The notes below the pieces were generated by a model. That model saw nothing but the letters and a program-made list of their open reading frames with translations, was not told the origin of the DNA and made no database searches. A DNA stretch of 64,000 bases, from contig CAWISZ010000002.1 in the NCBI GenBank assembly GCA_963838955.1, positions 121,991 to 185,990 on the forward strand. Direction: 5' to 3'. The position numbers were made by a program, and so were the translations under genes. Of the stretch, positions 1,670-64,000 are shown piece by piece. The number at the start of each line of letters is the position of its first letter. Position 1 is the stretch's first letter. Origin of the DNA: an uncultured Thermoplasmata archaeon (GTDB lineage: Archaea; Thermoplasmatota; Thermoplasmata; Lutacidiplasmatales; UBA184).

Positions 1670-2089
1670 GTTTCGGTCCCCCGTCCTCTTCGTGATCATA
1701 ACACCAGCCGGTGCTGTACACCAAGGACCCAGACCTGGGCCGAGGTGACGGCGCACGATCGGTCTCAGACCGGGCTGGGCTACTGGCTCCGAGGGGCGAC
1801 CGAGCAACTCATCGTTGCCGGCCGCGGCTCGCCCCGGAGGCGCTTCACGGGCCCGCACGGCGCCTCCGGGAAGGCGTGGAGCACCCTGCTGCTCGCGCGC
1901 CGCCGGGAGCACTCCCAGAAGCCCGACGAGGTCTATGCGATGGCCGAGGACATCGGCCCCATGCCTCGCTTGGAGCTGTTCGCTCGCTACCACCGGGGCG
2001 GCTGGGCGACCTGGGGCAACGTGACCCCGAAGGCGGGGCTCTACGGGCTCGGGAGCTTCGGGGCGCCGATCGCCGCGGACGCCGGGTGA
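1670..2089 (+). pseudogene. MT-A70 family N6-adenine DNA methyltransferase, C-terminal remnant only
   Basis: Translation GLGYWLRGATEQLIVAGRG...REHSQKPDEVYAMAEDIGPMPRLELFARYHRGGWATWGN matches MT-A70 C-terminal motifs. In-frame TAG just upstream (about 1667) and no DPPW-containing N-terminal half in any frame. Confidence 0.6.
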
Positions 2090-2099
2090 GCCCCTCTCC

Positions 2100-2760
2100 G
2101 TAGCGTCGACCGCACGAGGCGAGGACCGCACTGTGGACCTTCGTGGAGCTGGTGCGGAGCGGTCATCCCTCCAGGCTCAAGGAGGCGTATCCTTGAGCGT
2201 GGACGGGCTTCCACCCCGTGTTGTGGACTCGCGGCCCTCGTTCTACCACCGCCCAGGGGATGAGGAGTGGGGGGCCCAACGTTGGGGGGGAGTGGTCCCC
2301 CCTCCGCGCTCAAGGCCGCGCGGCCTTGAACCTGGAGGGGCACCTTCGGAGGGGACCCCCCCGTCCGTAAGGGGGGCGGGACGGGGGTGTAGGGGGCCCC
2401 CCTACCTTGCCCCCAACCCTGCGAAGGTTCGAGGTAGCTTCGGTCCGAGGTTCCCGTCAGAGTAAGGGACTATGGTCCCTCGAGGTACCCCGGAAGGTTC
2501 TCGTCAGAGCCGACGGACCCATGGACCTAGGTACAGCGGCCTCAGGGGAATGAGCCGCCCGGGCACCGACGACCAGTGGCGTCCCCCACGGATGACGACG
2601 TTCGGCCCTGAAGGCGCCCTGGCCCCGAGCGTACCTCGCGCGGGTGAGTTTCAATCGATGGATTACGGCCGGGATGTCTAGCGGCGCTTCGTCTGTAACT
2701 GAATACTGAGACTCGGCCCCATCATATACCTCCTCTCGAATATCACCGGAGAAGGAGACG
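2100..2760. repeat. ORF-free region rich in G-run/C-run hairpins and a short repeated motif
   Basis: Near-perfect palindrome GTAGGGGGCCCCCCTAC (about 2389-2405); G7...C6 hairpin (about 2284-2302); GGGAC-TATG-GTCCC hairpin; motif GGTTCYCGTCAGAG present twice. All six frames give only Pro/Gly/Arg low-complexity translations. Confidence 0.4.
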
Positions 2761-2764
2761 GAAA

Positions 2765-3379
2765 ATGCCGGGACTAAGTAGACTTACAAGGCAGCACCTC
2801 GAGAATCTGATACGTCGAATGCCGAACGCGTCCCTGGCTGAGCTGGCCCGTCGGACCGGGCATTCTAAGAAGGCGATCGAGAAATTCTGCCAGCTGAACG
2901 GCATTGAAGTGGCGGGCGAGGCACCCGTGAATCAAGAGCCGACTGTCATAAAGGTCACAGCTACGGTTAGTGACCCCTCCGCGGGCCGATGGGTGGAGCC
3001 TCTCCCGCCGATTCCCCTGTTGCCCGCTGACGAACTTAGATGGGCAATCGAGACCTTCCGAAGCCTTGGTCCCGGTCTGCCCGATAAGTACGCGACGTGG
3101 GGACCCTTGGGCGTCTTCGTCTGGTACAGGGACGCTTTCTGGGCGCAGCTCGACGAGCTTGGGAAGCTCGAGGACAAGGTCAAGTCGCTGGGCAGGGCCG
3201 CACAGTACCCGGAGGGCACAGCATCTCGAGCAAAAAGTCCGGGAACTCGAAATCGAGAAGGACCTGTACGATCGACCGATTCCAGCAGGAAAGTCGCTAC
3301 CTGCAGGATGAGCGCGACCGCCGCGGTCAGACCATCTCGAACTACTCGCGCAAGGACAAGGAGCAGCAAATGCAGCTGA
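2765..3379 (+). CDS. HTH-containing hypothetical protein; 3-prime part degraded across three frames up to about 3597
   Basis: N-terminal helix-turn-helix-like segment NASLAELARRTGHSKKAIEKF. Coding signal hops between frames after about 3215 (ORFs 2970..3311 and 3097..3597). Abuts IS630 left end. Confidence 0.4.
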   Translation: MPGLSRLTRQHLENLIRRMPNASLAELARRTGHSKKAIEKFCQLNGIEVAGEAPVNQEPTVIKVTATVSDPSAGRWVEPLPPIPLLPADELRWAIETFRSLGPGLPDKYATWGPLGVFVWYRDAFWAQLDELGKLEDKVKSLGRAAQYPEGTASRAKSPGTRNREGPVRSTDSSRKVATCRMSATAAVRPSRTTRARTRSSKCS

Positions 3380-3545
3380 ACGCGGCACATGCTCGCCTTC
3401 CGGCCATCGACCGGGGACTCGACCTTGAGCAGGCTCGACGAATTCACGAAGCAGAGGAAAGGGGCAGAGCCCAGGGAGAGGCACGGATGTACTCCATCCT
3501 CACACCGGAGGAGATTTCCTCTAGGGAAGCCCAGCTAGCTCGAGT

Positions 3546-4712
3546 ACGGGAAGGTCATCGAGCTAGTGTAGCGTCCTCTGAATGGCTACGGTTATAACCG
3601 GGGAGGTCTTGGGGGCCATGTGCGAGTCGCCCCACCATTGCCTCTCACGCTGGAGGAACGGGACAGCCTCGAGAGCTGGGCGAGGGGCCACTCGACCCCT
3701 CATCGCCTCGTCCTCCGGGCCAAGATCGTCCTGAGGGCCACCGAAGGGGCTCAGAACAAGCAGATCGCCGAGGAGCTCGGCGTCCAAGCCAACACCTGCG
3801 CTCTTTGGCGCCATCGCTTCCACCACCTTCGCCTTCCCGGTCTCGAACAGGACGCCCCTCGAGCCGGTGGACCGCTGCAGATTCCCGACTCCACGATTCG
3901 GTCAATCGTCCACGACACGCTGCACACCAAGCCCCCGAACGCCACTCACTGGTCCACTCGGACGATGGCCGCACGGTACGGTGTGAGCCCCAACACCATT
4001 CACCAGATCTGGAGGGCGCGACGGCTCCAGCCACATCGACTGGAGCACTACAAGCTCAGCAAGGACAAACATTTCGAGGAGAAGCTCCGGGATGTTGTCG
4101 GCCTCTACCTCAATCCCCCCGAGCATGCCCTCGTGCTGAGCGTCGACGAGAAGACCCAGATCCAGGCGCTCGATCGGACCCAATCGATCCTCCCCTTGCG
4201 CGAAGGCATCCCCGAGCGACAGACCCACGACTATCGGCGGAACGGGACCACCGACCTCTTCGCGGCGCTCGATATCCTCAGCGGAAAGATCGTGGGGGAA
4301 TGCCACAAACGGCACCGAGCGAAGGAGTTCCTGACCTTCCTCCGAACCATTGACCGCACCACTCCTCCCGAGTTGGACCTCCACCTGATCCTCGACAACC
4401 TCGCTACGCATCGCACGGCGAGAGTGAAGCGGTGGGTTCTGCGGCACCCGCGCTTTCACTTCCATTTCGTTCCGACCAGCTCGTCTTGGTTGAACCAGGT
4501 CGAGCGGTGGTTCAAGGAGATTACCGACAAGCGGATTCGTCGGGGAACCTTCCGCAGCGAACTCGAGCTGATTGGGGCCGTGAAGCTCTACATCGAGCGG
4601 TACAACGAGGTCCCGAAACCGTTCATCTGGAGGGCTACGGCCGACGCGATCTTGTCAAAGATACAGAAGCACCAGTTAAACGTAGAACTGACGAGGACAC
4701 TACACTAGGAAA
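3546..4712 (+). mobile_element. IS630 family insertion sequence (about 1.17 kb)
   Basis: Transposase flanked by imperfect terminal inverted repeats CTAGTGTAGCGTCCTC (about 3546-3561) and GAGGACACTACACTAG (about 4697-4712), 15 of 16 complementary. TA present at both junctions. Confidence 0.75.
3620..4708 (+). CDS. IS630 family transposase (DDE)
   Basis: 362 aa; N-terminal HTH region; catalytic region with DNLATH...SSWLNQVERWF typical of IS630/Tc1-mariner transposases. Confidence 0.9.
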   Translation: MRVAPPLPLTLEERDSLESWARGHSTPHRLVLRAKIVLRATEGAQNKQIAEELGVQANTCALWRHRFHHLRLPGLEQDAPRAGGPLQIPDSTIRSIVHDTLHTKPPNATHWSTRTMAARYGVSPNTIHQIWRARRLQPHRLEHYKLSKDKHFEEKLRDVVGLYLNPPEHALVLSVDEKTQIQALDRTQSILPLREGIPERQTHDYRRNGTTDLFAALDILSGKIVGECHKRHRAKEFLTFLRTIDRTTPPELDLHLILDNLATHRTARVKRWVLRHPRFHFHFVPTSSSWLNQVERWFKEITDKRIRRGTFRSELELIGAVKLYIERYNEVPKPFIWRATADAILSKIQKHQLNVELTRTLH

Positions 4713-5082
4713 GCGGTGGGATTGGGAAGTGGAGCGGGTGGGAATCGAGGCGAAGTACGAAGGACTGAAGTGGGTGCGCTCCCGCATCGACCGCCTCAAC
4801 AACTCGCCCCCGACGTCTGTTTCCCCTGGTGCTGAGCTGAAGGAGAAACTCGACAACCGGAGTGGCCCCGAGCCCCGAGCCGACTTCGAAGCGCTGGCTG
4901 CTGCCTTCCGGTCCCAAACGGCCGCCGCCGTCCAGTACATGACCGACATGGCAATGCAGGACCTAGGTCCGAATGAGACTGCACCAGACAAACACCAGAT
5001 GGGCGAAATCATTTCCCGACTCGAGGGCATCGTGAAGTCGGGCGTGATCCTCGCGAAGACCGCCTGCGAGGTCATCTCCTAA
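4713..5082 (+). CDS. hypothetical protein fragment downstream of IS630
   Basis: Continuation of ORF 4432..5082 beyond the IS630 right end; coding-like codon usage; no start codon of its own. Confidence 0.3.
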
Positions 5083-5445
5083 TCGCCAACGGCGACTTCG
5101 ATTCGGGCTTAACCGTTAGTCCGGAGCATCCCGATTCGTCGGGCCCTGACCGTTAGCATCATGCCAATGTACGCGCGCGGGAGCCGATTCAGGCACCTTT
5201 CCATAGACGTCCCCAGTGCTCGACCCCGAGGACCCCACCTACGCCGTAGCCAACGCATCGCGGCCGGCGTTTCTCATCATGACGCTCCCGGAGCCGATCG
5301 ACTGGACCGTCCCCCGAAAGTTAACAACTTGACTCGGTGGTGAACAGAGCAATCCCTCCCGACCAGCCCGTCGACTGTTCCGGTCGTCGGCAGCTAAGCG
5401 ATCATGAGACGGTAGGCACCCGCCTGCATCGACACCGGCGTCGAT

Positions 5446-5898
5446 TCATCCAGAGCCCACGTCAGCGTCATCCCAGGTTGATTCTTCGGCTTCCTCCTTC
5501 ACCCGCTCGACCCAGACCACTACCCCGGGCGTGCCGTACTCCTTCTCGGCCTCGAGTCGCACCACCTGCGCGTCGTCTCTCCACACGATCCCCGTGAGAC
5601 TGTCGAGGCAGGCCCGAACGAGCTTGTCGAGATCCGGCCGGCGCTCCGGCCACGTCCGTAGCTTCTTCGGCGCGCTCTTCGGCTTCGGCACGTAGAACAT
5701 CAGCGTCACCGCCAGCGGGCCTTCCCACAAGCTGCTCGGAGCGTGCTGCTGGGCGACGTCGGAAACGAGGCGTCGCCACGCAGCCAAGCCTCGGTTCGCG
5801 GTCGTAATGTGGACCTTCCCGCCCACGACGAACCCACGCGCACTTCCTTGGGGTGCCGGAACTCCTCGGACCTCGAAGGAGATCATCTCCGCGCTCAT
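5446..5898 (-). CDS. rusA: RusA-like Holliday junction resolvase
   Basis: RRPDLDKLVRACLDSLTGIVWRDDAQVV aligns with the E. coli RusA core [29 protein letters not shown]. Start overlaps the stop of the upstream gene (ATGA). Confidence 0.8.
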   Translation of the reverse strand: MSAEMISFEVRGVPAPQGSARGFVVGGKVHITTANRGLAAWRRLVSDVAQQHAPSSLWEGPLAVTLMFYVPKPKSAPKKLRTWPERRPDLDKLVRACLDSLTGIVWRDDAQVVRLEAEKEYGTPGVVVWVERVKEEAEESTWDDADVGSG

Positions 5899-6422
5899 GC
5901 TCGAACCCGCCCGTGGACCATCTCGCGGGTCTCTTCGACGGCGGCCAGCGCCTCCTGCACCTTGAGCAGCAGGCTCTCCCGCAGCCGCTCCGTGAACTTC
6001 GCATCCGCTTCATCGAGGGCCGAGTAGAGCGCGACCTCGGCGCGCAGCGACTCGTACTCGGCCAGCCGAAGCGTGAACCCGATCCTCGCCCAGTCCCTTC
6101 CCGCATAGGGTCCTGGCTCGCCGGGGCTCTCCTGCGCGAGGGCGAGCGACTGAGGACATGCCGCAGTCGGAGATTCCTCTGACCCATGCCGCGTCGTGCC
6201 CTGCGCGCTGCAAGGAGGGGCGTGCTTGAACCTCCGCGACTCCCGGTCCCAGAGAAGCCTGCTGATTGGGGTTCCGGCGGGTAGGACGCCCCCGCACTCC
6301 GAGCAGCGTAGATCCTTGTGCAGCAGCTCGCCGTGGCCGCTTCCCAGGCTTGACGGTGTCTTCTGTTCGGCCCCAGGCCCTGTGGCGACCCCCGTAGAGT
6401 TCGACATCACTTCCACTCTCAC
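5895..6422 (-). CDS. hypothetical protein with CxxC pair and C-terminal coiled-coil, coupled to rusA
   Basis: 175 aa; CSECGG motif; its 5-prime end plus about 80 bp upstream lie inside direct repeat copy A. Confidence 0.55.
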   Translation of the reverse strand: MRVEVMSNSTGVATGPGAEQKTPSSLGSGHGELLHKDLRCSECGGVLPAGTPISRLLWDRESRRFKHAPPCSAQGTTRHGSEESPTAACPQSLALAQESPGEPGPYAGRDWARIGFTLRLAEYESLRAEVALYSALDEADAKFTERLRESLLLKVQEALAAVEETREMVHGRVRA

Positions 6423-6500
6423 CCGCGGGAGACGACGCTACGAACGAGCGAGTCTCTTCAAGGCGGGCCCAACACAAGTGGCGCTGCCCTGAGGTGCTTC
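6214..6500. repeat. direct repeat copy A (about 287 bp)
   Basis: About 85-90% identical by eye to 8797-9082, same orientation. Confidence 0.7.
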
Positions 6501-6603
6501 CCACGCTGACCGTCAGCGGGTTTGCGATGCGACGGTGTCTCGCGCCCTCCCACCGGAGTATCAGTCTCCTCGGATCTCTCGAGGATCCTCGGGCGGCGGG
6601 GCA

Positions 6604-8731: not shown

Positions 8732-8759
8732 CGTTCACGCAACCCTTCCCCTTGGTCCA

Positions 8760-16999: not shown

Positions 17000-18780
17000 G
17001 CTCGAACTGTCCATCTCGAAGCGACGAACAAGCTGACCATGGAGAACATCGTCGGGTTCATCCGTCGACCTGTGGTTCCTCACGGAACTGGAGCGAAGGT
17101 CACCTGTCCGAGGGCGTTCCTGGGGAAGACCGTCTATCTGGTGATCACCGACGAGGATTGGCCCGAGGATCGACCTCGCCGAGGGAGGCGACCATGAGCG
17201 GCTACGTTCGAGCCGTTCACCGTCACCAGCAGATTCTGATGCCCGACCTTCTGGACGACTACGTGACGGAGGAGAACCCGGTGCGGTTCCTCGATGTGTT
17301 CGTCGACGGCTTGGACTTGAGCGAGCTCGGGATCACTCACGCCGAACCGAACGAGACGGGACGACCACCGTATGATCCCGCGGCTCTGCTGAAGCTCTAC
17401 CTCTATGGCTACCTCCACGGGGTGCGTTCCAGTCGGAAGCTGGAACAGGAGTGCCATCGCAACCTGGAGGTGATGTGGCTCCTGCGCAAGCTCACCCCGG
17501 ACTTCAAGACGATTGCCGACTTCCGCAAGGACAATGTCGATCGCTTCCGACCCTTGTTCCAGCGGCTCGTGGCTCTCGGCCGAGAACTCCGCCTGCTGGA
17601 GGGAGATTTGGTGGCGATCGACGGGAGTAAGTTCCGAGCGGTGAACGCGAAGGACCGCAACTTCAATCGTGCGAAGCTCGCCGACCGGACGAAGGCGATC
17701 GAGAAGAGCATCGATCGCTACCTGCGTGAGCTGGATGAGAATGACGCGAAGGAATCGGAGAATCCCGGTCTTCCGTTGCGCGTCCCGAATCTCCAGGAGA
17801 AGATCGAGCGGCTGAAGGAACGACAGCGCCGCTATCGAGGTCTGCTCGAGCAGCTGGAGACGACCGGGGCTACCGAGATCTCCCTCACCGACCCGGACAG
17901 TCGCATGATGAAAGGGAACCATGACCGGATGGAGGTCAGCTACAACGGGCAGATCGCCGTCGAGGCCGACAGCAAGCTCATTGTCGCCTACGATGTCGAC
18001 AACAAGGCGTCCGACCACCACCAGCTCGCCTCGATGGCGGAGCAGGCTCAGGCAGCTCTACGACGGTCGTCTCTACGGGCTGTCGCGGACCGCGGATACT
18101 ACGATGGCGAGCAGGTCCGTCGATGCATCGCGCGGGACATCACGCCGTACGTTCCGGAGCCCGAGAAGGGGCGAGGGGCAGCCGAACGGACCGCCATGGC
18201 TCCGGAATTCCAGCGAGACCGGTTCGTCTACGATCCCACGACCGACACGGTTCGATGCCCCGCCGGAGCTCGGTTGACCTTCCGTGGGGAGCGTCGGACC
18301 CATTGGCACCAGCGCCCGGGGGGAATTCTCGAGCGCGAATATCGGACGGACCAGTGTCCTTCCTGTCCGCACTTCATGACACGGTGCACCCACAATCCGA
18401 TGGGACGACGGTTCCATCGACGAGAGAACGATGAGCATCTGGAGGCGATGCGGAGGCGAGTGCGAACCGACGAGGGAGAGCGAATCCTCGCCGAGCGCCA
18501 ATCGGTCGTGGAACACCCGTTCGGCACGATCAAACGAGCGTTCAACCAAGGCTACCTGTTGTTGAAAGGGCTTCGGAAGGTGATGGGGGAAATGGGGCTC
18601 ACGATGATCGCGTATGACCTGAGACGGTTGCTGAGCCTGGTCGGAACCCGAGCTCTGGTGGCCCACCTATCGAGCGAACGAAGAGCTCGAGGGGCTGCGG
18701 CCTGAACTCCCCTCTTCCCCGAATTCGAACGGACAAAGGAGTGGAGGGATCTCTCGAACCGGCCGACGTTTTTACACAGT
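17000..18780 (+). mobile_element. IS1182 family insertion sequence (boundaries approximate, inverted repeats not resolved)
   Basis: Single long transposase ORF; ends inferred only from coding extent. Confidence 0.4.
17158..18705 (+). CDS. IS1182 family transposase
   Basis: 515 aa; N-terminal LLKLYLYGYLHGVRSSRKLE and C-terminal DDE region typical of IS1182; alternative start at 17194. Confidence 0.9.
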   Translation: MARGSTSPREATMSGYVRAVHRHQQILMPDLLDDYVTEENPVRFLDVFVDGLDLSELGITHAEPNETGRPPYDPAALLKLYLYGYLHGVRSSRKLEQECHRNLEVMWLLRKLTPDFKTIADFRKDNVDRFRPLFQRLVALGRELRLLEGDLVAIDGSKFRAVNAKDRNFNRAKLADRTKAIEKSIDRYLRELDENDAKESENPGLPLRVPNLQEKIERLKERQRRYRGLLEQLETTGATEISLTDPDSRMMKGNHDRMEVSYNGQIAVEADSKLIVAYDVDNKASDHHQLASMAEQAQAALRRSSLRAVADRGYYDGEQVRRCIARDITPYVPEPEKGRGAAERTAMAPEFQRDRFVYDPTTDTVRCPAGARLTFRGERRTHWHQRPGGILEREYRTDQCPSCPHFMTRCTHNPMGRRFHRRENDEHLEAMRRRVRTDEGERILAERQSVVEHPFGTIKRAFNQGYLLLKGLRKVMGEMGLTMIAYDLRRLLSLVGTRALVAHLSSERRARGAAA

Positions 18781-20788: not shown

Positions 20789-22254
20789 ATGTCCGTGTGG
20801 GGAGGCGGATTCACCGCTCCCCTCATCCTAGTAGGGTTCATCGCAGTCGCGGCGCTCGCCGGATTCTTTGTGCTCTGGTACGAATCGCCCGGTCACTGGA
20901 TTTGGCGCGCGTGGGTGCGCCGGGGGAGTGAACGGCTCACGGGCCGAGCGGATCTGACCTGGGTCAACGTGTGGGTTCTGACCACCGTGGCTGCCGCCGT
21001 ATTCACACTAGGCGCAGGGGTCAACTGGGCACTAGGGGTTTACGGCTGCAGTCCGGGCGGCCCTTCGGACCTCATCACCCTGTGGACGTCTGGGCACGCC
21101 TTTCTCCACGGTGGCGATCCGTTCACAATCACCGCGTGCGGGACGTCCGGGAACCCGGTGCCCGCAGGGCTGGCGTCTGTCTTCATCGATGCAGTGGGAA
21201 GCCTTGGGGGACTCGCAGGGATCCTACTCGTTTGGGGTGCGGTCTCCGTGGCGATCATACCCCTGATCTGGACGCTGAGCGAACAGACACCGGCGATCGC
21301 GACTGTGTGGGTGCTCGTGTCCCTCCTGTATTTCCCGATCGTCGCCGCCCAGGTCGATGGGGCAAGCCTTGCCCTCGTGCCCCTGGCGATCCTGCTCACC
21401 CTGTACCTGGCCCGGCTGGGCTGGGTTCGGGCGGCAGCGGTCGGAGGGTTCCTCTCAACTGGTCGGTTCCCTGCGCTGTTCCCGATTCTCGGAGCCACCG
21501 GACGCGCTGGATCTCGGCGGGCCGTGGCATTCGTGAGCTCGCTCGGTCTCTTTGCCGCGGTCACGGGGGTTTCAGTCGCGGTCTACGGAGCCAGCTTCAC
21601 GGCCCGGCCTTCTTTCTTCAGTTCACGCGGGAAGGTTTCACCCTGAACTACTGGGGGGTTCTGGAGGGACTCGGGTGGCTCGTCCCCTCGACCGGCGTCA
21701 CTATCGTGCAAACGGCCCTCACGATCGCACTGGTAGTGGTCGTCTGGGGGTGGGCGCGCTCGACTCTTGGTGCCGTTGCAATTGTTCTCACCGGGATTGT
21801 ACTCCTGGCCCAGTTCCTATCGTTCGACGAGCTGGTGTTCCTGCTGCCCGTCGCGCTAATCGGGACGCGGGCAAGGTGGTGGCTCTGGGCGATCGGTCTT
21901 GTGGCCATCTCGAACTACCTCTACCTCCTGGCATTCCAACCGGTCGCCTCAGTCGGCAATTCTGCTGTCCCCTCGTACGCGCTCGACTTCGTGTTGACCG
22001 CCCTCCTCCTCGGATTGTTGGTAGAGCTCCTCCGGACGGAGATTGAGAGGTGGCCGAAGGAGCCGGATTCGGGATTCGAGGTCCGCTCGGACTCGAAAAT
22101 CGCTGGGGCGGCAGAAGCTCGGATCCAAACGACGAACCTACGTCGTGACTCCGCGCCCGACTCCACCGCGCTCGGATTCGTGGACCCTCTTCAAACCGCT
22201 GCCTTGAGCACAGAGGCCCGATTCGTTGATTGGATGACGTCGGGAGAGCTGTAG
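20789..22254 (+). pseudogene. polytopic membrane protein (GT-C/DUF2029-like), apparent +1 frameshift near 21610
   Basis: Hydrophobic ORF 20789..21646 continues in the frame of ORF 20971..22254 (AFFLQFTREGFTLNYW...). Junction falls in a CACGGCCCGGCC run. Confidence 0.55.
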
Positions 22255-26957: not shown

Positions 26958-27455
26958 GTGGCGAGCGTTATGCTCCGATCGAAGGATCCGCGAGCCACCG
27001 ACCTTCCAGAGGCGCCACAGGATCTTCCGTGGCAACTGCTCCGGGAGGCTTTCTTCTTGCTCCGGGAGCGCTGGACACAGCAGCTCGAGCGATTCGATCT
27101 GTCGGTCTCCGACTTCGTAGTTCTAGAGCTGTGCGCTCCGCGCCCGGCCAAGACGTCCGAGATCGCCCGGAGGATCGGCATCACCGCCGCGGGTACGACC
27201 GATGTCATCGATCGACTGGAGGCTCGGCACCTGGTTCGGCGGGTCGCCGATCCGCAGGATCGCCGGGTAGTGCTGGTTCAACTTGCGCCTGCCGGTCGGC
27301 GCCTGTACCAGGAAGCGAAGTTTACGCGACGCGAGGCCCATCGGTCTCTGGATGACGTGATGAACCGGGAGGAGCGGCGTGCGCTGGCGAAGGGACTCTC
27401 TGCGCTCACGGCCGCGCTCCGCGACGATTCTCATCGAAGTGGAGGGGGCGGCTGA
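26958..27455 (+). CDS. MarR family transcriptional regulator
   Basis: Winged-HTH region SEIARRIGITAAGTTDVIDRLEARHLVRRVADPQDRR; GTG start; 165 aa. Confidence 0.85.
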   Translation: MASVMLRSKDPRATDLPEAPQDLPWQLLREAFFLLRERWTQQLERFDLSVSDFVVLELCAPRPAKTSEIARRIGITAAGTTDVIDRLEARHLVRRVADPQDRRVVLVQLAPAGRRLYQEAKFTRREAHRSLDDVMNREERRALAKGLSALTAALRDDSHRSGGGG

Positions 27456-29255
27456 GTACGGAATACAAGTGGACCGTCCTTTCCAACACGACCCTCGGGG
27501 CCCTCCTCGCCTCGATTGACGGTACGATCATACTGATCTCGCTGCCGGTCATCTTCCGGGGCCTCGGGGTCGACCCGTTCGCCCCCTCGAGCTTCCCGAT
27601 CCTGATCTGGCTGCTGCTGGGCTACGGGGTCGTGACGGCGACCCTGCTCGTCACCGTCGGCCGGCTCTCCGACATGTGGGGCCGCGCCCGGATGTACAAC
27701 GCCGGCTTCGCGATCTTCTCGACCGCCTCGGTCCTGCTGTTCGTCGAGCCGTTCTCCGGCATGACCGGTGCATGGATGCTCGTCGGATTCCGGCTCATCC
27801 AGGGGGTCGGGGCCGCGTTCCTCTTTGCGAACTCGACCGCGCTCTTGACCGACGCATTCGGCCCGGAGGAACGAGGGAAGGCGATCGGGTTCAACCAGGT
27901 CGCGTTCATCGGCGGCTCGATGGTCGGCCTCGTGGTCGGCGGCATCCTGGCGTCGATTCCCGACATCCCGATCGGTCCGTTCGTCCTACCGACGTGGCGC
28001 CTGATCTTCCTGATCAGTGTGCCCGTCGGGGTCTTCGGGACGTTGTGGGCGTACGCTCGGCTCCGCGAGACATCGATCCGCCGGGCCAACCAGAAGATCG
28101 ACTACGTCGGGAACGGAGTGTTCGCCGCCGGGATCACGCTCATACTGATCTCCACGACCTACGGGCTCCTCCCCTACGGCTCGTCTCCGACCGGATGGTC
28201 CAACCCCTGGGTCTTCAGCCGGCCTTGGGGCGGGAATCTTGCTGCTCGTGATCTTTCCGTTCATCGAACGTCGAGTGAAGGATCCGCTGTTCCGACTTCA
28301 CTTGTTCCGTGAACGAGCGTTCTCCGCGGGGATCTCTTCCGCGCTGCTGGGCTCGATCGCGCGCGGGGGGGTCATGCTGCTGCTGGTGGTCTGGTTCCAG
28401 GGGATTTGGCTCCCTCTGCACGGCTACTCGCTCGCGCAAACTCCCCTCTGGGCGGGGATCATGATGATGCCGATGATCGCCGGGTTCCTGACGGCGGCCC
28501 CGTTGAGTGGGTGGTTATCGGATCGAAGCGGGGCTCGAACGCTCTCGACCGTGGGAATGGCAATCGCTGGCGCCACGTTCTTCTTGTTCCTCCTGATCCC
28601 GGTGGACTTCGTCTACTGGCAAGTGGGCCTGCTCCTCTACGTGCAAGGCTGCGGAATGGGAATGTTCGCCGCACCGAACGCTGCGGCCGTCATGAACTCC
28701 GTCCCTGCCGAAGAACGAGGCGCGGCCTCCGGAATGCTTGCGACGTTGCAGAACACCGGCCAGCAACTCTCGCTGGCCCTCTTCTTCACGGTCGTCATCC
28801 TGGGCCTATCGGCGGGCATCGGAAGCTCGGTGACCAACGCGCTCTCCGCCGTCCAGGTCGGACCCCCGGACCTCCAGATCCTCAGCGGCCTGATGTCGGC
28901 CAGTCCGACCGGCGCCCTCTTCGGAGCTTTCCTAGGAGAGAATCCGATGCAGACGTACCTGATCGTGGCCGCGACCATCCCGGGATGGCAGCCTCTGGCC
29001 CCCTCCGTCATGTCGGCCCTCCTGACCCCCACCTTCTTCGCGAACTCCGTCGCGCCGGCCTTTGGAGGCGCTCTGAAGGACTCGTTCCTGTTCGCGGGGG
29101 CCACGACCGCCCTCGGGGCCCTCATCTCGGCCCTGCGCGGCAGGCGGTACATCTACGGGCAGACTCGAACCGTCGCGATGGGTTCGTCCGAGTCCGGCCC
29201 GAGCGCGGCGGCTTCGACAGCCGATCGTCCGACCGTAGCGAACCGGAGCCCTTGA
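27452..29255 (+). CDS. MFS transporter, DHA2 (EmrB/QacA)-like; no canonical start codon, and a +1 frameshift near 28225
   Basis: TM1/TM2 motifs KWTVLSNTTLGALLASIDGTIILISLP and GRLSDMWGRAR. Split into ORFs 27632..28312 and 28239..29255. No ATG/GTG/TTG between the upstream stop (27353) and 27632 in this frame. Confidence 0.7.
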
Positions 29256-35289: not shown

Positions 35290-35697
35290 ATGGGCGTGTC
35301 TGCGGACGAGCACGACCGCGATCTTCTGGATCGACTGCGTCAGGAGATCGAGAGCGTGGATCGATCGATCGTCCTGATGCTCGCTGCTCGTCTCGACGCC
35401 GCCCAGCGCGCCCTTCAGTTGCGGGCCGGACGCGATCGGAATCTCACGGACCCCAAGCAGGAGCGGCGGGTCCTCGCACGGAGCCGGAAGTGGGCCCGGA
35501 ATCTGGGCGTGCCGCCAGCGCTCGTCGAAGCCTTGTTCCGATCGCTCATCGAGGAAGGCAAGGTGCGCTTCCAGGCGGCCGCGAGCACTCCTGAAGGGTC
35601 CGTGGTCACGGTGCTGTTGGTGGACCCGGCTCTCGCGTCGTCCGCTTCAGGGGGAACGCCGGACCTGCAGCTCGTCGCCGTACCGACGTCCCGCTAG
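35290..35697 (+). CDS. chorismate mutase (AroQ class)
   Basis: Helix-1 motif LRQEIESVDRSIVLMLAARLDAAQRALQLR. Confidence 0.7.
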   Translation: MGVSADEHDRDLLDRLRQEIESVDRSIVLMLAARLDAAQRALQLRAGRDRNLTDPKQERRVLARSRKWARNLGVPPALVEALFRSLIEEGKVRFQAAASTPEGSVVTVLLVDPALASSASGGTPDLQLVAVPTSR

Positions 35698-36392
35698 CTT
35701 CGCGGTCGCCCGACGGAGCAGCTCCAGAGTCGTGGAGCGACGGGTCCCAAGGACGCGGGCGACGTCTCCGAGCGACCCGCGTCGCGGGTAGGCAAAGTAC
35801 CCCATATCGTGGGCGACCCGCAAGGCGCGGTCCTGCGCGGGCGTGAGGCTGGTCTTGGAGCGATACGACCTCACCGGACGATCGCAGGTTGAGGGGCGTT
35901 CCCCCGTGGAAGCTCCCGGAGGAAGGCTCTGGTTTGAGCTCCGCGAGGAAGGACCACCCGCCACTCCGTTCGCTCCCCCCGGGCGTGGAGCGGGCAGGTC
36001 ACACAGATCCCACCGGCACGATAGGTGACCGTACACGTCGGCGGGGCCGGCTCACTCACTCGCACCAGCACCCGCCCCGGCCCGAGCTGTGCGAGCGCCA
36101 ACTGCCGATGGGGGAGCCGCTGTCGGAGTGTGTGAAGGAGGTGGTCCATCCGCTCCGGCTCAACCTCGACATCGAGCCATCGGAGCAACCGCGGTGGGGT
36201 CTGGCTGGTCAAGCGACATGCGATTAGGTGCGGCTCGGCGCCGTCTCGGCGAAGGACCTCGGAGAGGAAGTGGTCACCCGGGCGATGATCGACTCGGACT
36301 TCGAGGAGTGGCACCCCGGGGACGTTCGGATGCTTTCGAACCCGGCGCTGGATGCCACGGCCCGGATGAGGGGGGGTGCTTGCCACGGGCAT
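35647..36392 (-). pseudogene. HTH_10 (Bat-type) transcriptional regulator, frameshifted
   Basis: N-terminal domain in ORF 35871..36392; C-terminal HTH LTPAQDRALRVAHDMGYFAYPRRGSLGDVARVLG in ORF 35647..36036; junction near CCGGTGAGGTCG. Confidence 0.55.
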
Positions 36393-36498
36393 GCTCAGAC
36401 CGTCTCGCTAGGTCGCGGGTTCGCTATGAACGTACCGTCGAGTCTCGTCGTGGAAACCCACCCACCGACGCAGGGGGCCGCGTGGCTAGATATTTCGG

Positions 36499-36914
36499 TC
36501 ATCGGACTCGAGCCGCTTTCCCATGCTCACGACCTCGTCCGTCGAGTGGCCGATGCGTCGGTAGCATTCGACCGCTTCCGCGTTGGAGGCCCGAACCTGC
36601 AGGTTGACCTTCGGGCAGCCGGACTCGCGTAGCCGGCGCTCGGCCCCCACGACGATGGCACGCGCGAGCCCCTAGCGCTGGTGGTCGGGATTGACGGCCA
36701 GGTAGTTGAGCCACCCGCGGTGGCCCTCGTACCCTGCCATGACGGACGCAACGATGGTGCCATCGAGCACGCCGACCAGGAAAAGATCGGGTCGAACCTT
36801 CCGCTTGCGTTGAATGTCCTTTCGGGGATCGTTCGAAGGTCGAACGAGATGGCATCGTTGCCAGAGCGCAACGATCGTCTCCTCGTCCTGCGGCTGGAAC
36901 GGGCGGATCTGCAC
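36499..36914 (-). pseudogene. YpeA-like GNAT acetyltransferase with in-frame TAG after codon 80
   Basis: MQIRPFQPQDEETIVALWQRC...GYEGHRGWLNYLAVNPDHQR, then TAG (36672-36674), then in-frame GLARAIVVGAERRLRESGCPKVNLQVRASNAEAVECYRRIGH...SMGKRL. Collinear with E. coli YpeA. Confidence 0.7.
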
Positions 36915-48232: not shown

Positions 48233-49245
48233 TCAGCGTCCGACGTCGGATCGCGTCGGCGGGCATGATATCATTCGAGCGCCGCCCCCGGGGAGGCGGG
48301 CGAGGTACTGCCGCATCGCGAGCGGTCGCAGAGGCCGGTCGGCGAGCGCGAGGTCGAGCACCTCGTCGAACGAATGCAACCGCACATCGATCAGCGCACG
48401 GATATCGTTCTCCCGACACGTCGCTTCAGTGTTCATGCCATCGACCAGCAGTCTCGCCATGCGCGCCGGCACGGTGGTGATGAACCCGACCCAGTGGGAG
48501 GAGAGGCGGGGGGTCAGCAGCGGCGTCGAGATGATCCAGGATCTGCTTCCGAGACGATTTCCGATGCGGTCGAGCATCTCGTAGTACCGCAGGATCTCCG
48601 GACCCCTACGTCGAACCCGCGCCCTGAGGTTCGCGGCTCGCGTAGGCAACCGACGAGGTAGGCGACGAGGTCGTCGAGCGCGATCGGTTGGCAGCGCGTC
48701 CGGATCCACTGAGGGCAGATCATCGCGGGGAGACGCTCGACCAGCTGCACCACCATCTGGAAAGATGCGCCGCCGGCGCCAAGGACGATCGCCGCGCGCA
48801 ACGTCGTCAGCGAGGGTGCACTTTCCGCAAGGATCCCCTCCACCTCCTGCCGACTCTCGAGATGCGCGGAGGACTCGGTCGATCCCCGTTGGAGGCCGCC
48901 CACGTAGATGATCCGCTCCACGCCCGCGTCGGCGGCGGCCCGGACAGTGTTGTTCGCAATCTCTCGATCGAGATGCACGAAATCTATCGATCAATCGCGA
49001 CTCGCCATCGAGTGGACGAGGTAGTACACCGTTCCGACGCCCTCGAACGCTTGCGCCAACCCGGTCGGATCGAGCAGGTCCCCCGTTACGCACGCAAGTC
49101 CGGGGGGAGTGGGACGAGGAGCGGGATGCGGACGAACGAGCGCCCGAACGGACTCCCCCTGGGCCAGCAGGGCCTCCGTGAGGCGGCGCCCGACGAAGCC
49201 GGTCGCGCCGAGAACCAAGACCACCTTCGCTCGTGGTTCGGGCAC
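48233..49245 (-). pseudogene. NmrA-like NAD(P)H-binding protein (DUF2867-type C-terminus) with in-frame TGA plus a frameshift
   Basis: Rossmann motif GATGFVGRRL; YYLVHSMASRD-TGA-SIDFVHLDREIANN in one frame; C-terminal EILRYYEMLDRIGN...HWVGF in another frame. Confidence 0.65.
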
Positions 49246-59258: not shown

Positions 59259-60349
59259 TGTTGGTATTTCCAACATCGATGCGTCCGGTCGCTCGAAACA
59301 TCGCGGTCATCGGGATCGTCGTGATCGCCGTGGGGGCCGGATTCGTGGGGGGATGGTACGCCGACCCCGCCGGATCGACCTCCTCGAGGGGCACCACCTC
59401 CACGCTCGCCGTCATCGCCGCGGGAACCCTCGGACCGAACCTGCCGTCGTTCGCTTCGAACTTCGCTAACCAGACTCCCGGAGTGCAGGCGCCGCTCTCG
59501 GCGCAGCTCTACGAAGGGAGTCTCGCCGCCGCCACGGCCCTGACCCAGCTCGGCCAGCCGTACGACGCCTTCGTCGCGGCGGACTTCCGGGTCATCCCCC
59601 AGCATCTCGAGCCCACTACCGCAAGCTGGGAGGTCGTCTTCGCGGCGGACCCGATGGTGCTCGCCTACGATCCGAGCGTCCCGGCGCTCGCCGGCATCAA
59701 TACCTCGAACTGGGCGAGCGTCATCGTCCAGCCCGGCATCACGCTCGGAACTCCCAACGCGAGTTCGGATCCCCTCGGGTACAACGCGATCTTCTCCATC
59801 GAGCTGGAGGACTCGCTCGACGACGCGCGAGGATCGTTCTACTCCCACTTCTACACGGGGAGCATGGGAAGCTTTGCGGGTCCGGTGACCGCGGTGACGA
59901 AGATCGTCCCCGAGACGCAGGCCTCCGCGGTCCTCTCCACGGGCACGGCGGACACCTACCTCATCTACCGCTCCTACGCGATCGCGGACCATCTTTCGTA
60001 CGTCGAACTCTCCCCCCACGTCAACCTCGCGGCGTACGATCCGACGTCCGTGACCAACGACACCGAGGCGTCGACCACGATCCTGTCGGGAACGACGACC
60101 AAGACCGTCGAGGGCGCACCGGTGCTGTTCGCCGCGACGGTGCCGAACACGGCTCCGAACGTTCCGCTCGGCGTCGCGTTCATCGCCTACCTGCTATCGA
60201 ACCAGACCTCGGCGACCTGGGCCGCCGACGGCTTCTCCGTCATCTCCCCGGCATGGACCGATCATCCGAACGCGATCCCCGCGGCGCTCGCCGGCTTCGC
60301 TCCCGAGTCCTTGCCGACGGTGCCGGCGTATCTCGCCGCGCTCTACTAG
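59255..60349 (+). CDS. wtpA: tungstate/molybdate ABC transporter substrate-binding protein (WtpA/ModA family)
   Basis: N-terminal TM/signal anchor, then periplasmic binding-protein fold; 364 aa. Confidence 0.75.
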   Translation: MMLVFPTSMRPVARNIAVIGIVVIAVGAGFVGGWYADPAGSTSSRGTTSTLAVIAAGTLGPNLPSFASNFANQTPGVQAPLSAQLYEGSLAAATALTQLGQPYDAFVAADFRVIPQHLEPTTASWEVVFAADPMVLAYDPSVPALAGINTSNWASVIVQPGITLGTPNASSDPLGYNAIFSIELEDSLDDARGSFYSHFYTGSMGSFAGPVTAVTKIVPETQASAVLSTGTADTYLIYRSYAIADHLSYVELSPHVNLAAYDPTSVTNDTEASTTILSGTTTKTVEGAPVLFAATVPNTAPNVPLGVAFIAYLLSNQTSATWAADGFSVISPAWTDHPNAIPAALAGFAPESLPTVPAYLAALY

Positions 60350-60364
60350 GGGCGGTTTCGACTC

Positions 60365-61222
60365 ATGACCGAGGACACGGTGGGGGACCGCGCGGCTCCG
60401 GTGCGACGCGCGGTGGGAGCGGTCCTCGCCGCGTCCCTGATCGGCCTGTTCGTCCTTCCGATCCTCGCGCTGTTCCTGTACGCGGGCTATGGCAACATCG
60501 CCAGTGCCGCGGGGAGCGCCGGGTTCCAGACGGCGCTGTACTTCACGCTCCTCGCCTCCGGGATCGCGGTCTGCTTCGGGATCCTCCTCGGCGTGCCCCT
60601 CGGCTACATCCTCGCACGTTACCGGTTCCCCGGCCGATCCATCGTCGAGTCGATCGTCCTCGTTCCCGTGATGATCCCCCACCTTATCGTCGGGATCTCG
60701 CTGCTCGTCCTCTTCGCACCGACGAACCCGTTCGGGGCGTGGGTCGCCGGGCTCGGGATCCCGATCTTCGATGCGATCTGGGGCGTCGTGCTGGTGATGG
60801 TGTACGTCGGCGCCTCGTACGTGGTGCTCACCAGCGAGCTCGCGTTCCGCTCGGTCGATAGGGAGGCGATAGAGGCCGCGCGATCGCTCGGAGCCTCGCC
60901 GACCGAGGCGTTCGCGACCGTGACGTTGCCTCAGGCCTTCCGCGGGATCGTGACCGGAAGCCTGCTGATGTGGGCCCGGGGGGTCAGCGAGATCGGCGGG
61001 TTCCTCATCCTCGCCTACGCCATCTACCCGAGCTTCCCGTACGGGGGGCCGGTGACGAATACGGCATCCGTGTACATCTACAACCTCTACTCCACGGCCG
61101 GCGTGCAGGCCGCCGCCGGGGCCTCGGCGCTCCTCGTGCTGGTCGCTCTCGCGGTCTTCGTCGGGGTCCGCCTCTTGGACCGCACGGGCATGGCGTGGAC
61201 GAAGGTGGGGTGGTTCGCCTGA
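60365..61222 (+). CDS. wtpB: tungstate/molybdate ABC transporter permease
   Basis: EAA-like loop region; 6 TM; 285 aa. Confidence 0.85.
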   Translation: MTEDTVGDRAAPVRRAVGAVLAASLIGLFVLPILALFLYAGYGNIASAAGSAGFQTALYFTLLASGIAVCFGILLGVPLGYILARYRFPGRSIVESIVLVPVMIPHLIVGISLLVLFAPTNPFGAWVAGLGIPIFDAIWGVVLVMVYVGASYVVLTSELAFRSVDREAIEAARSLGASPTEAFATVTLPQAFRGIVTGSLLMWARGVSEIGGFLILAYAIYPSFPYGGPVTNTASVYIYNLYSTAGVQAAAGASALLVLVALAVFVGVRLLDRTGMAWTKVGWFA

Positions 61223-62241
61223 CCGATGTGATTCTCTCGAACGTCGTGGTCGACCGGGATCGCTTCCGCATCGGCCCGATCGACCTCGAGCTCCGATCCG
61301 GCTCGGCGACGGTGCTCTTGGGCCCGTCCGGCGCCGGTAAGACCAGCCTATTGCGAGGGATCGCCGGATTCCTCCCGCTCCGTCGGGGCACCGTGCGCGT
61401 GGACGGCGCCGCCGTCGAGCGCTCCCCTCCGGAACGACGAGGATTCGGGTTCGTTCCTCCGGGTCTCGGACTGCTTCCCCACCGTCGGGTCCGCCAGAAC
61501 GTGAGCTATCCGCTCGATCTCCGCGGAGTCCCGGATGCGCGGGCCCGGGCGAAGCGCTGGATCGATCACTTCGAGCTTTCCGAATTCGCCGAGCGCTATC
61601 CCGCGCAGCTGAGCTCGGGCCAACGTCAACGCGTGGCGATGGCCCGCGCGCTCGCGGCGGAACCGCGCGCGCTCCTTTGGGACGAACCGCTCGCGGCCCT
61701 CGATGTGGAGAGCCGAGACGTACTGCTCCGACTCCTGCGCGATCTCATCGAGTCCGAGGGGATCCCGCTGCTGTTGGTCACGCACGACCCGGCGACCGCA
61801 TTCGCGCTCGCGTCGAACGTCGTGGTGCTGGAAGCCGGACGGGTCCGGTTCCAGGGAGAGGTGGCCGCTCTTCCGCACGCGCCCCTCGATCGGTTCATGG
61901 CGCGGTTCCTCGGCTTCGAGAATCTCTTCTCGCGGGGAGAACTCCTCGCCTCGGGCGATACCTCCCTCTCGCGCACCCTTCTCGGAGAGTCCGGCCCGGG
62001 CGGGATCGTGGTGCCCGACGACGCCTTGGGCTGGACCGACGCCGCTTCCGGCTCCGATCTCGCCCGGATCACCTCCGTACGATGGGCTCCGAGAGGTTGG
62101 ACGCTCACCGTACGTCAGGATGGGCTAACCTTGTTCGTGCACTCGCCAGCGAATTCCGTGCGCCTGCGGGTCGGAGATTCCGTCCGGCTGAGCCTCGATC
62201 CGACCCGGCTTCGGCCGCTCACCCTGGAGGGCGCGTCCTAG
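61210..62241 (+). CDS. wtpC: tungstate/molybdate ABC transporter ATP-binding protein with C-terminal TOBE domain
   Basis: GPSGAGKTS, LSSGQRQRV, LLWDEP; GTG start overlapping the wtpB stop. Confidence 0.85.
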   Translation: MVRLTDVILSNVVVDRDRFRIGPIDLELRSGSATVLLGPSGAGKTSLLRGIAGFLPLRRGTVRVDGAAVERSPPERRGFGFVPPGLGLLPHRRVRQNVSYPLDLRGVPDARARAKRWIDHFELSEFAERYPAQLSSGQRQRVAMARALAAEPRALLWDEPLAALDVESRDVLLRLLRDLIESEGIPLLLVTHDPATAFALASNVVVLEAGRVRFQGEVAALPHAPLDRFMARFLGFENLFSRGELLASGDTSLSRTLLGESGPGGIVVPDDALGWTDAASGSDLARITSVRWAPRGWTLTVRQDGLTLFVHSPANSVRLRVGDSVRLSLDPTRLRPLTLEGAS

Positions 62242-62243
62242 CG

Positions 62244-62879
62244 ATGGAACGGTGGCTGACCCCGATGGACGTCCGACTGCTGGCCCGACTTTCGACCACC
62301 CCGAACGTAGTTCGCGCCTCCCGCTCGTTGGGGATCCCGCGCGATCGCGCGGTCTATCGGCTCGCTCGGCTACACCGGCTCTACGGAGCTCCTGTGGTGC
62401 GCGCTCGCCGCGGGGGATCGACCCCCGGCGAGACCCAGCTCACGGCGCTCGGACGCCGACTCTTGCGCGACGCGCGTGAGGACCGGGCCGAGCCGCACTT
62501 CAACCGGTTCTCCGGCGTGTACCGTGCCGGTCGATCCCCGAAGGTCGATCTCGGCGAGGGACGCGAGCTCGAGGTCGGCTTCCGTGGGCGGGAAGGAGCG
62601 CCGGTGGAGGTCGCCATCGATCCTAGTTCGATCGTCATCGCCCGTCGTCCGGCGGAATTGAGTGCTCGCAATGCCCTCGCCGCCACGGTAGATTCCACCC
62701 ACGAGCACAATGCCCAGAGCGCGGAGCTCCGGGCCCTCTGGAGGGGGCTCGTCGTACGGGTGGGGATCACCCCGGGGTCGATCCGCCGACTCGCGCTGGT
62801 GCCGGGAGCGCGGGTGTACCTCTACGTGAAGGCCGTGTCCGTTCGTCGCGTCGCTACTCGCGGATCCCCTCGCTCGTGA
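62244..62879 (+). CDS. ModE-like molybdate-responsive regulator (HTH plus TOBE)
   Basis: N-terminal [32 protein letters not shown]; C-terminal TOBE-like barrel. Confidence 0.7.
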
Positions 62880-63852
62880 GCGAGTAGACCGCCTCCCCCT
62901 CGGGGAGGTTCGGCGAGTCGATGAGGCGCGCGATGCGCTTGGGGGGCTTGGACTTGCGCAGGTAGAGTCGGTAGGTCGACGCGTGCGCGACGATGTTGCC
63001 TCCGATGGGACGGGTCGGATCGCCGAAGAGGATGTCGGGGCGCGACATGACCTGGTTCGTGACCACGACCGCCGCGTTGTAGATGTCGGCGAAGCGCAGG
63101 AGCTCGTGCAGGTGCTTGTTCAGGAGCTGCTGTCGGCGGGCGAGCTCGCCCCGTCCGGCGTACTCGGAGCGGAAGTGCGCGGTAAGGGAGTCGACCACGA
63201 GGAGGCGGATCGGACGCCGTCGCGCGAGCTCCTGGGCCTTCTGGACGAGGAGCATCTGGTGGCTCGAATTGAACGCCCGGGCGACGTGGATCTTGGTGAG
63301 GGCCTCCTGCGGATCGAGGCCGACGGCCTTCGACATGTCGATGATCCGCTCGGGCCGGAACGTGCTCTCGGTGTCGATGTAGACCGTCTCCCCGAGCAGT
63401 CCTCCCTGGGCTACGGGCAGTTGGACGTCCACCGCGATCTGGTGGGCGATCTGGGTCTTGCCGGTGCCGAACTCGCCCGCGAACTCGGTGATCGCCTGGG
63501 TCTCGACCCCGCCCCCGAGGAGCTCGTCCAGCGCTTTCGCGTTGAGCGTGATACGGCCCAGTTTCTTGCGCCGCTCGAGCACCTGGGTCCCGAGCTCGAA
63601 CCCGCCGACGTCGGCCTTACGGCGCGCCTCGCCGATGATCTTCTGGGCGGTGGCCAGTCCGATGTCCGCGGCCTCCGCGATATCTCCGGGGGAGGCGACG
63701 GCGAGTTCCATGAGGTCGGTATAGCCGGCCTCCCGCAGCTTGTCGGCCGTCGTAGTCCCGACGCCGGGGAGGTCCTCGAGCGCGGTCTCGGTCTTTTCGG
63801 GAACGGCCGGCTCCGCCGGCGGGGCTACGCGGACGATGGGTTTGGGCGACAC
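62854..63852 (-). CDS. radA: DNA repair and recombination protein RadA
   Basis: N-terminal HhH domain; Walker [10 protein letters not shown]; 332 aa; TAG stop. Confidence 0.95.
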
Positions 63853-64000
63853 AATGCGATGAGTCGCGCCGGGGGAGATAAGGGTGGGGGAGGGGTCACG
63901 AAACGGCGGAATCTGCCGTCACGCGGACGGAGTGAACGGCTGCCCGGTCAGCCGCTGGTAGACGGTCGTGTACAAGCGACTGACCTCATCGACCAGGAGC

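Follow-up and report, generated by a model that had tools for sequence, protein, structure and literature searches.

Private one-base errors beside CCGG and GTAC very probably explain most disrupted genes in a 64-kb Thermoplasmata assembly window

Are the many broken genes in a stretch of 64,000 nucleotides from an uncultured Thermoplasmata archaeon (assembly GCA_963838955.1; hereafter the window) broken in the organism, or only in its assembly? An earlier note, made from the sequence alone, had reported seven frameshifted genes and two in-frame stops. All are present within about 45 nt of where it had placed them, and the long genes that it took to be intact (a 664-aa GMC gene, purH, an aromatic-lyase/hutH-like gene and radA) are intact. 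With 8 of about 60 genes broken, the density is indeed above the ordinary, but it falls to three once indels found only in the window are removed. The disruptions are very probably for the most part an artefact of assembly, not biology, and the overall finding is an ordinary one.

We located the lesions base by base against near-identical assemblies and orthologues. The comparison set consisted of the NCBI MAG GCA_049280295.1 (three contigs; hereafter the MAG) and Logan contigs of separate runs (SRR28062071, SRR28011880, SRR28062068, ERR10509552 and ERR10509554). All relatives recovered for the window are uncultured Thermoplasmata MAGs, for which reason we rejected a haloarchaeal origin, at first suggested by high GC, HTH_10 and radA. 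An allele is called private if only the window carries it and shared if it also occurs in other assemblies. This comparison with related loci, which the earlier note had proposed, separates private indels, at which the genes are intact elsewhere, from shared lesions.

Over about 59.5 kb the private differences from the MAG amount to nine 1-bp indels and four substitutions. All other bases are identical, and positions 50365-64000 match the MAG at 100% identity. Five of the indels are insertions (3208, 3265, 3541, 28216 and 42492) and four are deletions (13440, 21599, 32548 and 48603). The MAG covers all 13 private sites, and for 3208-3541, 28216, 32548, 37945-38246, 42492 and 48603 there is coverage by one to three Logan assemblies as well; at junctions 13440 and 21599 the comparison is with the MAG only, the nearest Logan contigs ending 153 bp and 574 bp before them. 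At every private indel within a gene the window has the broken allele and the other assemblies have one long ORF. The features concerned, with the lengths of the intact alleles in the other assemblies, are these (the NmrA-like gene with the deletion at 48603 follows further below):

2765..3571, + strand, HTH/coiled-coil gene of unassigned family; three private 1-bp insertions, intact allele 267 aa
13111..13703, - strand, GT2-like ORF; private loss of one C (C4→C3) at 13440, MAG allele a single 197-aa ORF
20789..22254, + strand, polytopic membrane protein; private loss of one C at 21599, MAG allele a single 488-aa ORF
27452..29255, + strand, MFS transporter; private C insertion at 28216 (between CTT and AGCCGG, non-homopolymer), MAG allele 600 aa
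41824..42910, + strand, membrane protein with a C-terminal cupredoxin-like part; private G insertion at 42492 (CTCGTAC→CTCGGTAC), intact allele 361 aa
32548, no strand, private loss of one G (G6→G5), in a stretch of about 1.8 kb that lacks a credible gene
2673, no strand, private substitution (C in the MAG, G in the window), 1 nt from CCGG
37945, 38049 and 38246, no strand, three private G→A substitutions (G in the MAG and in two Logan assemblies)

The frame switches are visible in the codon-usage map of the window alone, and in the Pfam search adjacent segments of a model are matched by separate pieces of the broken genes. The MFS transporter is a clear example. Its MAG allele matches MFS_1 positions 2-342 of 347 in one stretch (E 1.5e-38), whereas the two halves in the window match positions 2-187 and then 176-342; in a Logan contig the ORF runs for 540 residues to the contig end and, by coordinate arithmetic, passes through the 28216 junction. 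The insertion at 42492 is missing from the MAG and two Logan assemblies. Residues 1-361 of the intact protein align in one frame to an orthologue (in L009) at 80% identity, and the tblastx alignment of the window's gene breaks exactly at 42492. The label cupredoxin-like is that of the earlier note, and no significant Pfam domain was found in this protein. In the membrane protein at 20789..22254 the codon score changes frame at 21592-21604, around a deletion that falls within ACCGG of the intact allele; the protein, which had been called GT-C-like, has no Pfam match. For the GT2-like ORF the match of the intact allele is weak and partial, covering only positions 60-91 of 168 of the Glycos_transf_2 model.

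The HTH gene received three insertions, a C at 3208 (CC→CCC), a T at 3265 and a C at 3541. These and one substitution are the only differences between window positions 1-3768 and the MAG contig JBAPPW010000029.1 (L040). Intact HTH proteins come from NCBI (P0001, 249 aa) and from Logan (P0003, 267 aa). The truncated 204-aa product of the window (P0002) is on record from a contig of 294,305 bp, hence the errors belong to the deposited assembly. The count of seven frameshifted genes stands, but it hid the three insertions of the HTH gene and missed the deletion at 32548.

That deletion is missing from the MAG and from Logan run SRR28062071. A 474-aa ORF called around it in a Logan contig was considered as an eighth broken gene and rejected: it scores low for codon usage, its translation looks like junk, and neither Pfam nor the search for relatives gave a match. 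The window ORFs flanking the deletion likewise have junk-like translations and neither Pfam matches nor relatives. Scanning all of the window with Rfam and for tRNAs, this gene-free stretch included, revealed no non-coding RNA. As for the three G→A substitutions, the one at 37945 changes Val to Ile and adjoins GTAC, the one at 38049 is synonymous and lies 3 nt from CCGG, and the one at 38246 is intergenic and adjoins CCGG.

The window is continuous through two IS elements at which the contigs of the MAG break:

3620..4708, + strand, IS630-like transposase (DDE_3 plus HTH_23)
17158..18705, + strand, IS1182/IS5-like transposase (DUF772, DDE_Tnp_1_6, DDE_Tnp_1)

The MAG contigs stop at window position 3768 and resume at 4583, within the first element, and a second gap (17065-20745) extends over the second transposase.

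Not all lesions are private. Three genes carry lesions that are each found in at least two other assemblies, and these lesions are therefore real:

35647..36392, - strand, HTH_10 regulator; real 1-bp deletion at 35873 (an A on the + strand) that puts the HTH_10 domain out of frame
36489..36914, - strand, small GNAT acetyltransferase; real nonsense TAG at 36672-36674 (AAG→TAG)
48233..49245, - strand, NmrA-like NAD(P)-binding gene; private loss of one C (C5→C4) at 48603; the in-frame TGA at 48991-48993 is real

At the HTH_10 locus the window has the same sequence as the MAG (L001) and a Logan contig (L002). Orthologues in two relatives (L009 and L028) have TT on the coding strand and one continuous ORF with the N-domain and HTH_10; a single gap appears in the nucleotide alignment, the window gets an immediate TGA, and Pfam matches HTH_10 only in the downstream frame. 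The TAG in the GNAT gene is common to the window, the MAG and the same Logan contig. It hits the acetyl-CoA motif, where orthologues have Lys (HQRKGLG), and it divides the Acetyltransf_1 match into positions 6-73 before and 75-115 after the stop; in L009 and L028 the gene is a single ORF each. The NmrA-like gene combines both kinds of lesion. Its deletion at 48603 is missing from the MAG and from Logan run SRR28062068, whereas its TGA is present in both (Logan L044), the gene being called there as 84 or 77 aa plus 248 aa. NAD_binding_10 is matched in the window at positions 1-68 before the TGA and 74-125 after it, and the 248-aa piece aligns in one frame across the 48603 junction to the sole homologue recovered (L010, 50% identical), which lacks a stop where the window has its TGA and carries an in-frame stop elsewhere.

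Judged by their sequences, the HTH_10 deletion, the GNAT TAG and the NmrA-like TGA read as ordinary pseudogenes or split genes, and three of these in 64 kb are unremarkable. The suspicion that the nonsense codons are genuine was thus borne out. The suspicion of assembly indels proved right for six of the seven frameshifted genes, in which they are private, but wrong for HTH_10, whose 1-bp deletion, evident from the comparison with two orthologues, also occurs in the MAG and in a Logan contig. Decay of genes in an accessory region, which the earlier note had also entertained, is not needed to account for the excess; the three real lesions sit in a block that is syntenic with a sister species.

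Where do the private differences fall? Twelve of the 13 lie at most 3 nt from CCGG or GTAC in window coordinates, as against 14.6% of all positions (P = 1e-9). The thirteenth lies within a CCGG of the intact allele, so all 13 are within about 3 nt of one of the two motifs. Among the 120 possible pairs of palindromic 4-mers no other does as well as CCGG and GTAC, and in a control with 2000 random position sets the minimum P was 9e-6. Four of the five insertions and one substitution adjoin GTAC, while three of the four deletions lie in C/G homopolymers of at least four bases, which make up 4.8% of the window. The association with CCGG is partly confounded with these homopolymers, that with GTAC is not.

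The regularity is therefore not the one first proposed, that all frameshifts lie at short G/C runs. We rejected an enrichment in such runs, because G/C-only runs of at least four bases cover 33% of the window and hold five of the nine private indels, which is not significant; what HTH_10 lost is a T/A. The description homopolymer-type fits the deletions but not the insertions, among which those at 3541 and 28216 are non-homopolymer and that at 3265 is a T. Since all 13 private differences lie beside CCGG or GTAC, the pattern points to motif-associated, probably DNA-modification-associated, miscalls as opposed to pure homopolymer slippage. The real HTH_10 deletion abuts CCGG too, so proximity to a motif is by itself no proof of error.

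What has to be explained is which lesions are private and which shared, the intact alternative alleles and the association with the two motifs, all of which are observed. Most breaks are best read as one-base consensus errors, since the genes concerned are intact in other assemblies of this organism. We consider it very probable, on these sequence comparisons, that the private indels and substitutions are long-read consensus errors at CCGG/GTAC and C/G homopolymers, and that three lesions are real. The contig from which the window comes would be long, lightly polished and probably Nanopore-only. If CCGG and GTAC are methylated in the host, basecalling would be systematically unreliable beside both, and C/G homopolymers would form a second class of unreliable sites. 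Each indel in a gene would then shift the frame of an otherwise perfect gene and inflate the apparent density of pseudogenes. The pattern of errors suggests modification of CCGG and GTAC in this Thermoplasmata population; among the genes of the window we found no methyltransferase specific for either motif, only an MT-A70 remnant.

One could also argue that the window represents a distinct strain in which the private indels arose recently as real mutations, its genes decaying rapidly, for example in a mismatch-repair-poor lineage under relaxed selection. Homopolymer indels are the commonest natural frameshift mutations too, and deletions in C/G homopolymers match the natural slippage spectrum. 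The window also holds three real lesions and several gene remnants (the MT-A70 fragment and a partial GT2), and its 28-34 kb part is not syntenic with the sister species. Nevertheless, we regard this as unlikely, for the following reasons. First, nine indels stand against four substitutions in 59.5 kb, at a divergence of about 7e-5, a ratio opposite to the one that natural divergence gives; extrapolated to a whole genome of a few Mb, hundreds of genes would be inactivated. Second, natural mutation would have to place 13 of 13 differences at CCGG or GTAC, and to hit one gene three times in 335 bp. Third, the broken allele is always the window's and is found in no other assembly, and downstream of the indels the reading frames match the intact alleles at 100% identity.

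Every private difference adjoins a 4-bp palindrome, CCGG or GTAC, and both are of a kind typical of Type II restriction-modification systems. The indels could hence be repair scars, left where self-restriction at CCGG/GTAC was followed by imprecise end joining, but this is very unlikely. Substitutions are among the changes, whose distance from the motifs varies between 0 and 3 nt with no fixed position, restriction-modification genes are not seen in the window, such a frameshift load would be lethal genome-wide, and the pattern resembles methylation-induced basecalling errors. We give equally little credence to the broader idea that the 1-bp changes are a real burst of frameshifts, caused in one strain by mutagenesis at CCGG/GTAC, with imprecise repair after self-restriction or after loss of a methyltransferase as one possible mechanism.

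Two further possibilities are barely credible. Some Thermoplasmata (Methanomassiliicoccales) read TAG as pyrrolysine, and programmed frameshifting or the recoding of stop codons (Pyl or Sec) might allow the frameshifts and stops to be read through. Recoding should leave the same lesion conserved and the stop codon rare as a terminator; the private frameshifts are missing from sister assemblies and hence not conserved, TAG terminates 15 and TGA 26 of 46 window genes, and orthologues have Lys at the TAG position. It is just as implausible that the window has the right sequence and that errors, or a repaired consensus, are on the side of the MAG and Logan contigs, given that several assemblies of different runs concur and that their alleles are full-length ORFs matching a complete Pfam model and a sister-species orthologue.

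If the private differences are consensus errors, six genes (HTH, GT2-like, membrane protein, MFS, cupredoxin-like and, in part, NmrA-like) should not be taken as pseudogenes or as genome decay, and analyses of pseudogene density, dN/dS or accessory-region decay in assembly GCA_963838955.1 would mislead. Ordinary prokaryotic pseudogenes are represented by the HTH_10, GNAT and NmrA-like lesions, which are single-nucleotide and present in all assemblies, with intact sister-species orthologues for HTH_10 and GNAT; however, only 3 of the 11 lesions in recognised genes fit this kind.

The others resemble known Nanopore errors. Consensus errors of this technology occur mostly at methylation motifs and next at homopolymers (Wick et al. 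2019, PMC6591954), and a purine ambiguity has been described for methylation-induced errors (Lohde et al. 2024, 10.1101/2023.09.15.556300), with which the G→A change in three of the four private substitutions agrees. Like these, the window has 1-bp indels and purine/pyrimidine miscalls at short methylation-type motifs and homopolymers, and fragmented gene calls in an otherwise accurate, repeat-spanning long contig. It differs in its motifs, CCGG and GTAC, whose methylation we infer, whereas the published Nanopore cases concern Dcm or Dam motifs. In such assemblies indels produce gene calls with frameshifts, and polishing is required for bins below about 40x (Sereika et al. 2022, PMC9262707). 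With 13 differences in 59.5 kb, or about 1 per 4.6 kb, the rate in the window is of the order expected of an unpolished low-coverage bin.

The excess of disrupted genes that the earlier note reported is, judging from the comparison of assemblies, mainly an assembly artefact. That the disruptions are really present in the sequence (G+C 61–69%) is clear from two observations. First, the coding signal in a codon-usage map built from the clearest ORFs switches frame at every site named in that note. Second, Pfam finds consecutive parts of one domain in the split pieces. The MFS pieces match MFS_1 positions 2–187 and then 176–342; the GNAT pieces match Acetyltransf_1 positions 6–73 and 75–115, with one codon between them across a TAG; and the NmrA-like pieces match NAD_binding_10 positions 1–68 and 74–125 across a TGA. 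The HTH_10 domain is found in the downstream frame only.

When the intact GMC oxidoreductase was searched for as an exact protein match, the same locus turned up in a MAG (GCA_049280295.1, labelled Thermoplasmata archaeon at NCBI) and in Logan assemblies of separate runs. The MAG covers 1–3768, 4583–17064 and 20746–64000 of the window. Over these ~59.5 kb a base-by-base comparison yields only 13 differing positions, and from 50365 to 64000 the two are 100% identical.

Differences private to the window, relative to the MAG
3208, insertion of C (CC to CCC), HTH gene
3265, insertion of T, HTH gene
3541, insertion of C, HTH gene
28216, insertion of C, MFS gene
42492, insertion of G, cupredoxin-like gene
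13440, deletion (C4 to C3), GT2-like gene
21599, deletion (CC to C), membrane protein gene
32548, deletion (G6 to G5), no credible gene
48603, deletion (C5 to C4), NmrA-like gene
2673, substitution, C to G
37945, 38049 and 38246, substitutions, G to A each

The affected genes are single ORFs in the MAG. The GT2-like ORF has 197 aa, the membrane protein 488 aa, and the MFS protein 600 aa, with an unbroken match along the full Pfam model. The intact cupredoxin-like protein (361 aa) is colinear with its orthologue in the sister species L009 at 80% identity, and the translated alignment of the window to L009 is interrupted exactly at 42492. The HTH protein has 249 aa in the MAG, where an internal start is called. 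This gene is indeed disrupted in the window, but by three private insertions and not by the single frameshift originally described. Overlapping Logan contigs side with the MAG against the window at 32548, 37945–38246, 42492 and 48603 and in the HTH gene (intact 267-aa product); at 28216, by coordinate arithmetic, a Logan gene call of 540 residues runs on past the junction.

We conclude that the private differences are errors and not mutations, for the following reasons. First, there are nine indels to four substitutions at a divergence of about 7 × 10−5, a ratio opposite to that of natural divergence; if the private-indel rate held genome-wide, hundreds of genes would be disabled. Second, the broken allele is always on the window side. 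Third, 12 of the 13 differences are no more than 3 nt away from CCGG or GTAC, a property of 14.6% of all window positions (P = 1 × 10−9); for the remaining one, at 21599, the intact allele has a CCGG that includes the site. This closeness is the decisive pattern for error over mutation. Of the 120 pairs that palindromic 4-mers can form, CCGG with GTAC scores best, and when 13 positions were drawn at random 2000 times, no P lower than 9 × 10−6 was reached. One substitution and all but one of the five insertions adjoin GTAC, as do 3.4% of all positions. The G/C runs proposed earlier as the sequence context are an imprecise description: three of the four deletions do fall in homopolymers of 4 or more bases (4.8% of the window), but closeness to the two motifs is the main pattern. 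Of the two motif associations, the one with CCGG overlaps C/G homopolymers and the one with GTAC is free of such overlap. Three of the four substitutions are G to A.

Three disruptions are shared, base for base, by the window and other assemblies and are real. Error, which the earlier note put first, broadly accounts for the frameshifts of six of the seven genes, which are private to the window, but not for that of the HTH_10 regulator. Here one base is missing at 35873 relative to the orthologues in L009 and L028 (GGTTG to GGTG, coding strand). A TGA follows at once, and the HTH_10 domain is no longer in frame; in the orthologue, a single ORF of 240 aa ends with HTH_10. Both nonsense codons are likewise real, and on these the earlier note was right. 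The small GNAT gene has a TAG at 36672–36674 where both orthologues have Lys (motif HQRKGLG), a single AAG to TAG change, and the TGA of the NmrA-like gene at 48991–48993 is common to the window, the MAG and Logan run SRR28062068. Recoding is not indicated, since TAG ends 15 and TGA 26 of 46 confident genes. Three single-hit pseudogenes in a set of ~60 genes are unremarkable. The HTH_10 deletion, although real, also adjoins CCGG, so closeness to a motif is by itself no proof of error; it is the comparison between assemblies that tells the two classes of lesion apart. The NmrA-like homologue in L010, a related MAG from a Nanopore-only study (MFD03323.bin.2.126; ~2923–3807, minus strand), has an in-frame stop elsewhere (…SRREV*ALLRRG…); this stop, too, could be an error of the consensus or a real lesion.

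Scanning species-representative genomes returned only uncultured Thermoplasmata MAGs as relatives; in the closest, the GMC protein shares 83% of its amino acids with that of the window. Hence, the organism is a soil or sediment-type Thermoplasmata and no haloarchaeon. Essentially identical sequence occurs in two run series (SRR280…, ERR105…) and in the NCBI MAG, with differences only at the 13 suspect sites, which suggests repeated sampling of one very clonal population, or related samples. The last ~90 bp of Logan contig L008 (4214–4301, window 62923–63009), inside radA, diverge sharply from both window and MAG; a variant path or a chimeric end of the contig is the probable cause, not a real difference.

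The left end of the window (1–10000) resembles a mobile or provirus-like region, with a SNF2 helicase directly upstream on MAG contig L040.

1670–2086, MT-A70 methyltransferase fragment, N-terminally truncated (Pfam positions 74–171 of 172)
3620–4708, IS630-like transposase
5446–5898, RusA resolvase

A direct repeat of ~278 bp (89% identity) lies at 6226–6502 and 8797–9074. The first copy overlaps the 5' part and upstream region of a 170-aa gene (5895–6407, minus strand); the second is without a corresponding long ORF and may be a paralogue remnant. The indel at 32548 lies within ~1.8 kb without a credible gene (31765–33540), for which no Pfam match, Rfam match or relative was found and which sits in a ~28–34 kb block not syntenic with L009. 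At 58278–59258 a nickel superoxide dismutase gene (Sod_Ni, 177 aa) adjoins an S26-type peptidase gene. SodN and its maturation protease are a usual gene pair; its presence in a Thermoplasmata lineage is noteworthy.

The disruptions themselves hold no new biology. The one side result that may be of use is the suggestion, from the error pattern, that CCGG and GTAC are modified in this archaeon.

The window crosses an IS630-like and an IS1182/IS5-like element uninterrupted, and the MAG contigs break at both. The truncated 204-aa product of the window has a database entry, from a contig of 294,305 bp (NCBI and ENA). Both points are in keeping with long-read sequencing. Among the relatives from the species scan, several are Nanopore-only MAGs polished by a single Medaka round (PMC12313526), a set to which the window may or may not belong. 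In Nanopore assemblies, consensus errors fall mostly in methylation motifs and next in homopolymers (PMC6591954), unknown methylation motifs lead to purine/pyrimidine ambiguity (10.1101/2023.09.15.556300), and in bins below ~40x gene calls are fragmented by indels (PMC9262707). The private changes of the window behave as these published Nanopore consensus errors do.
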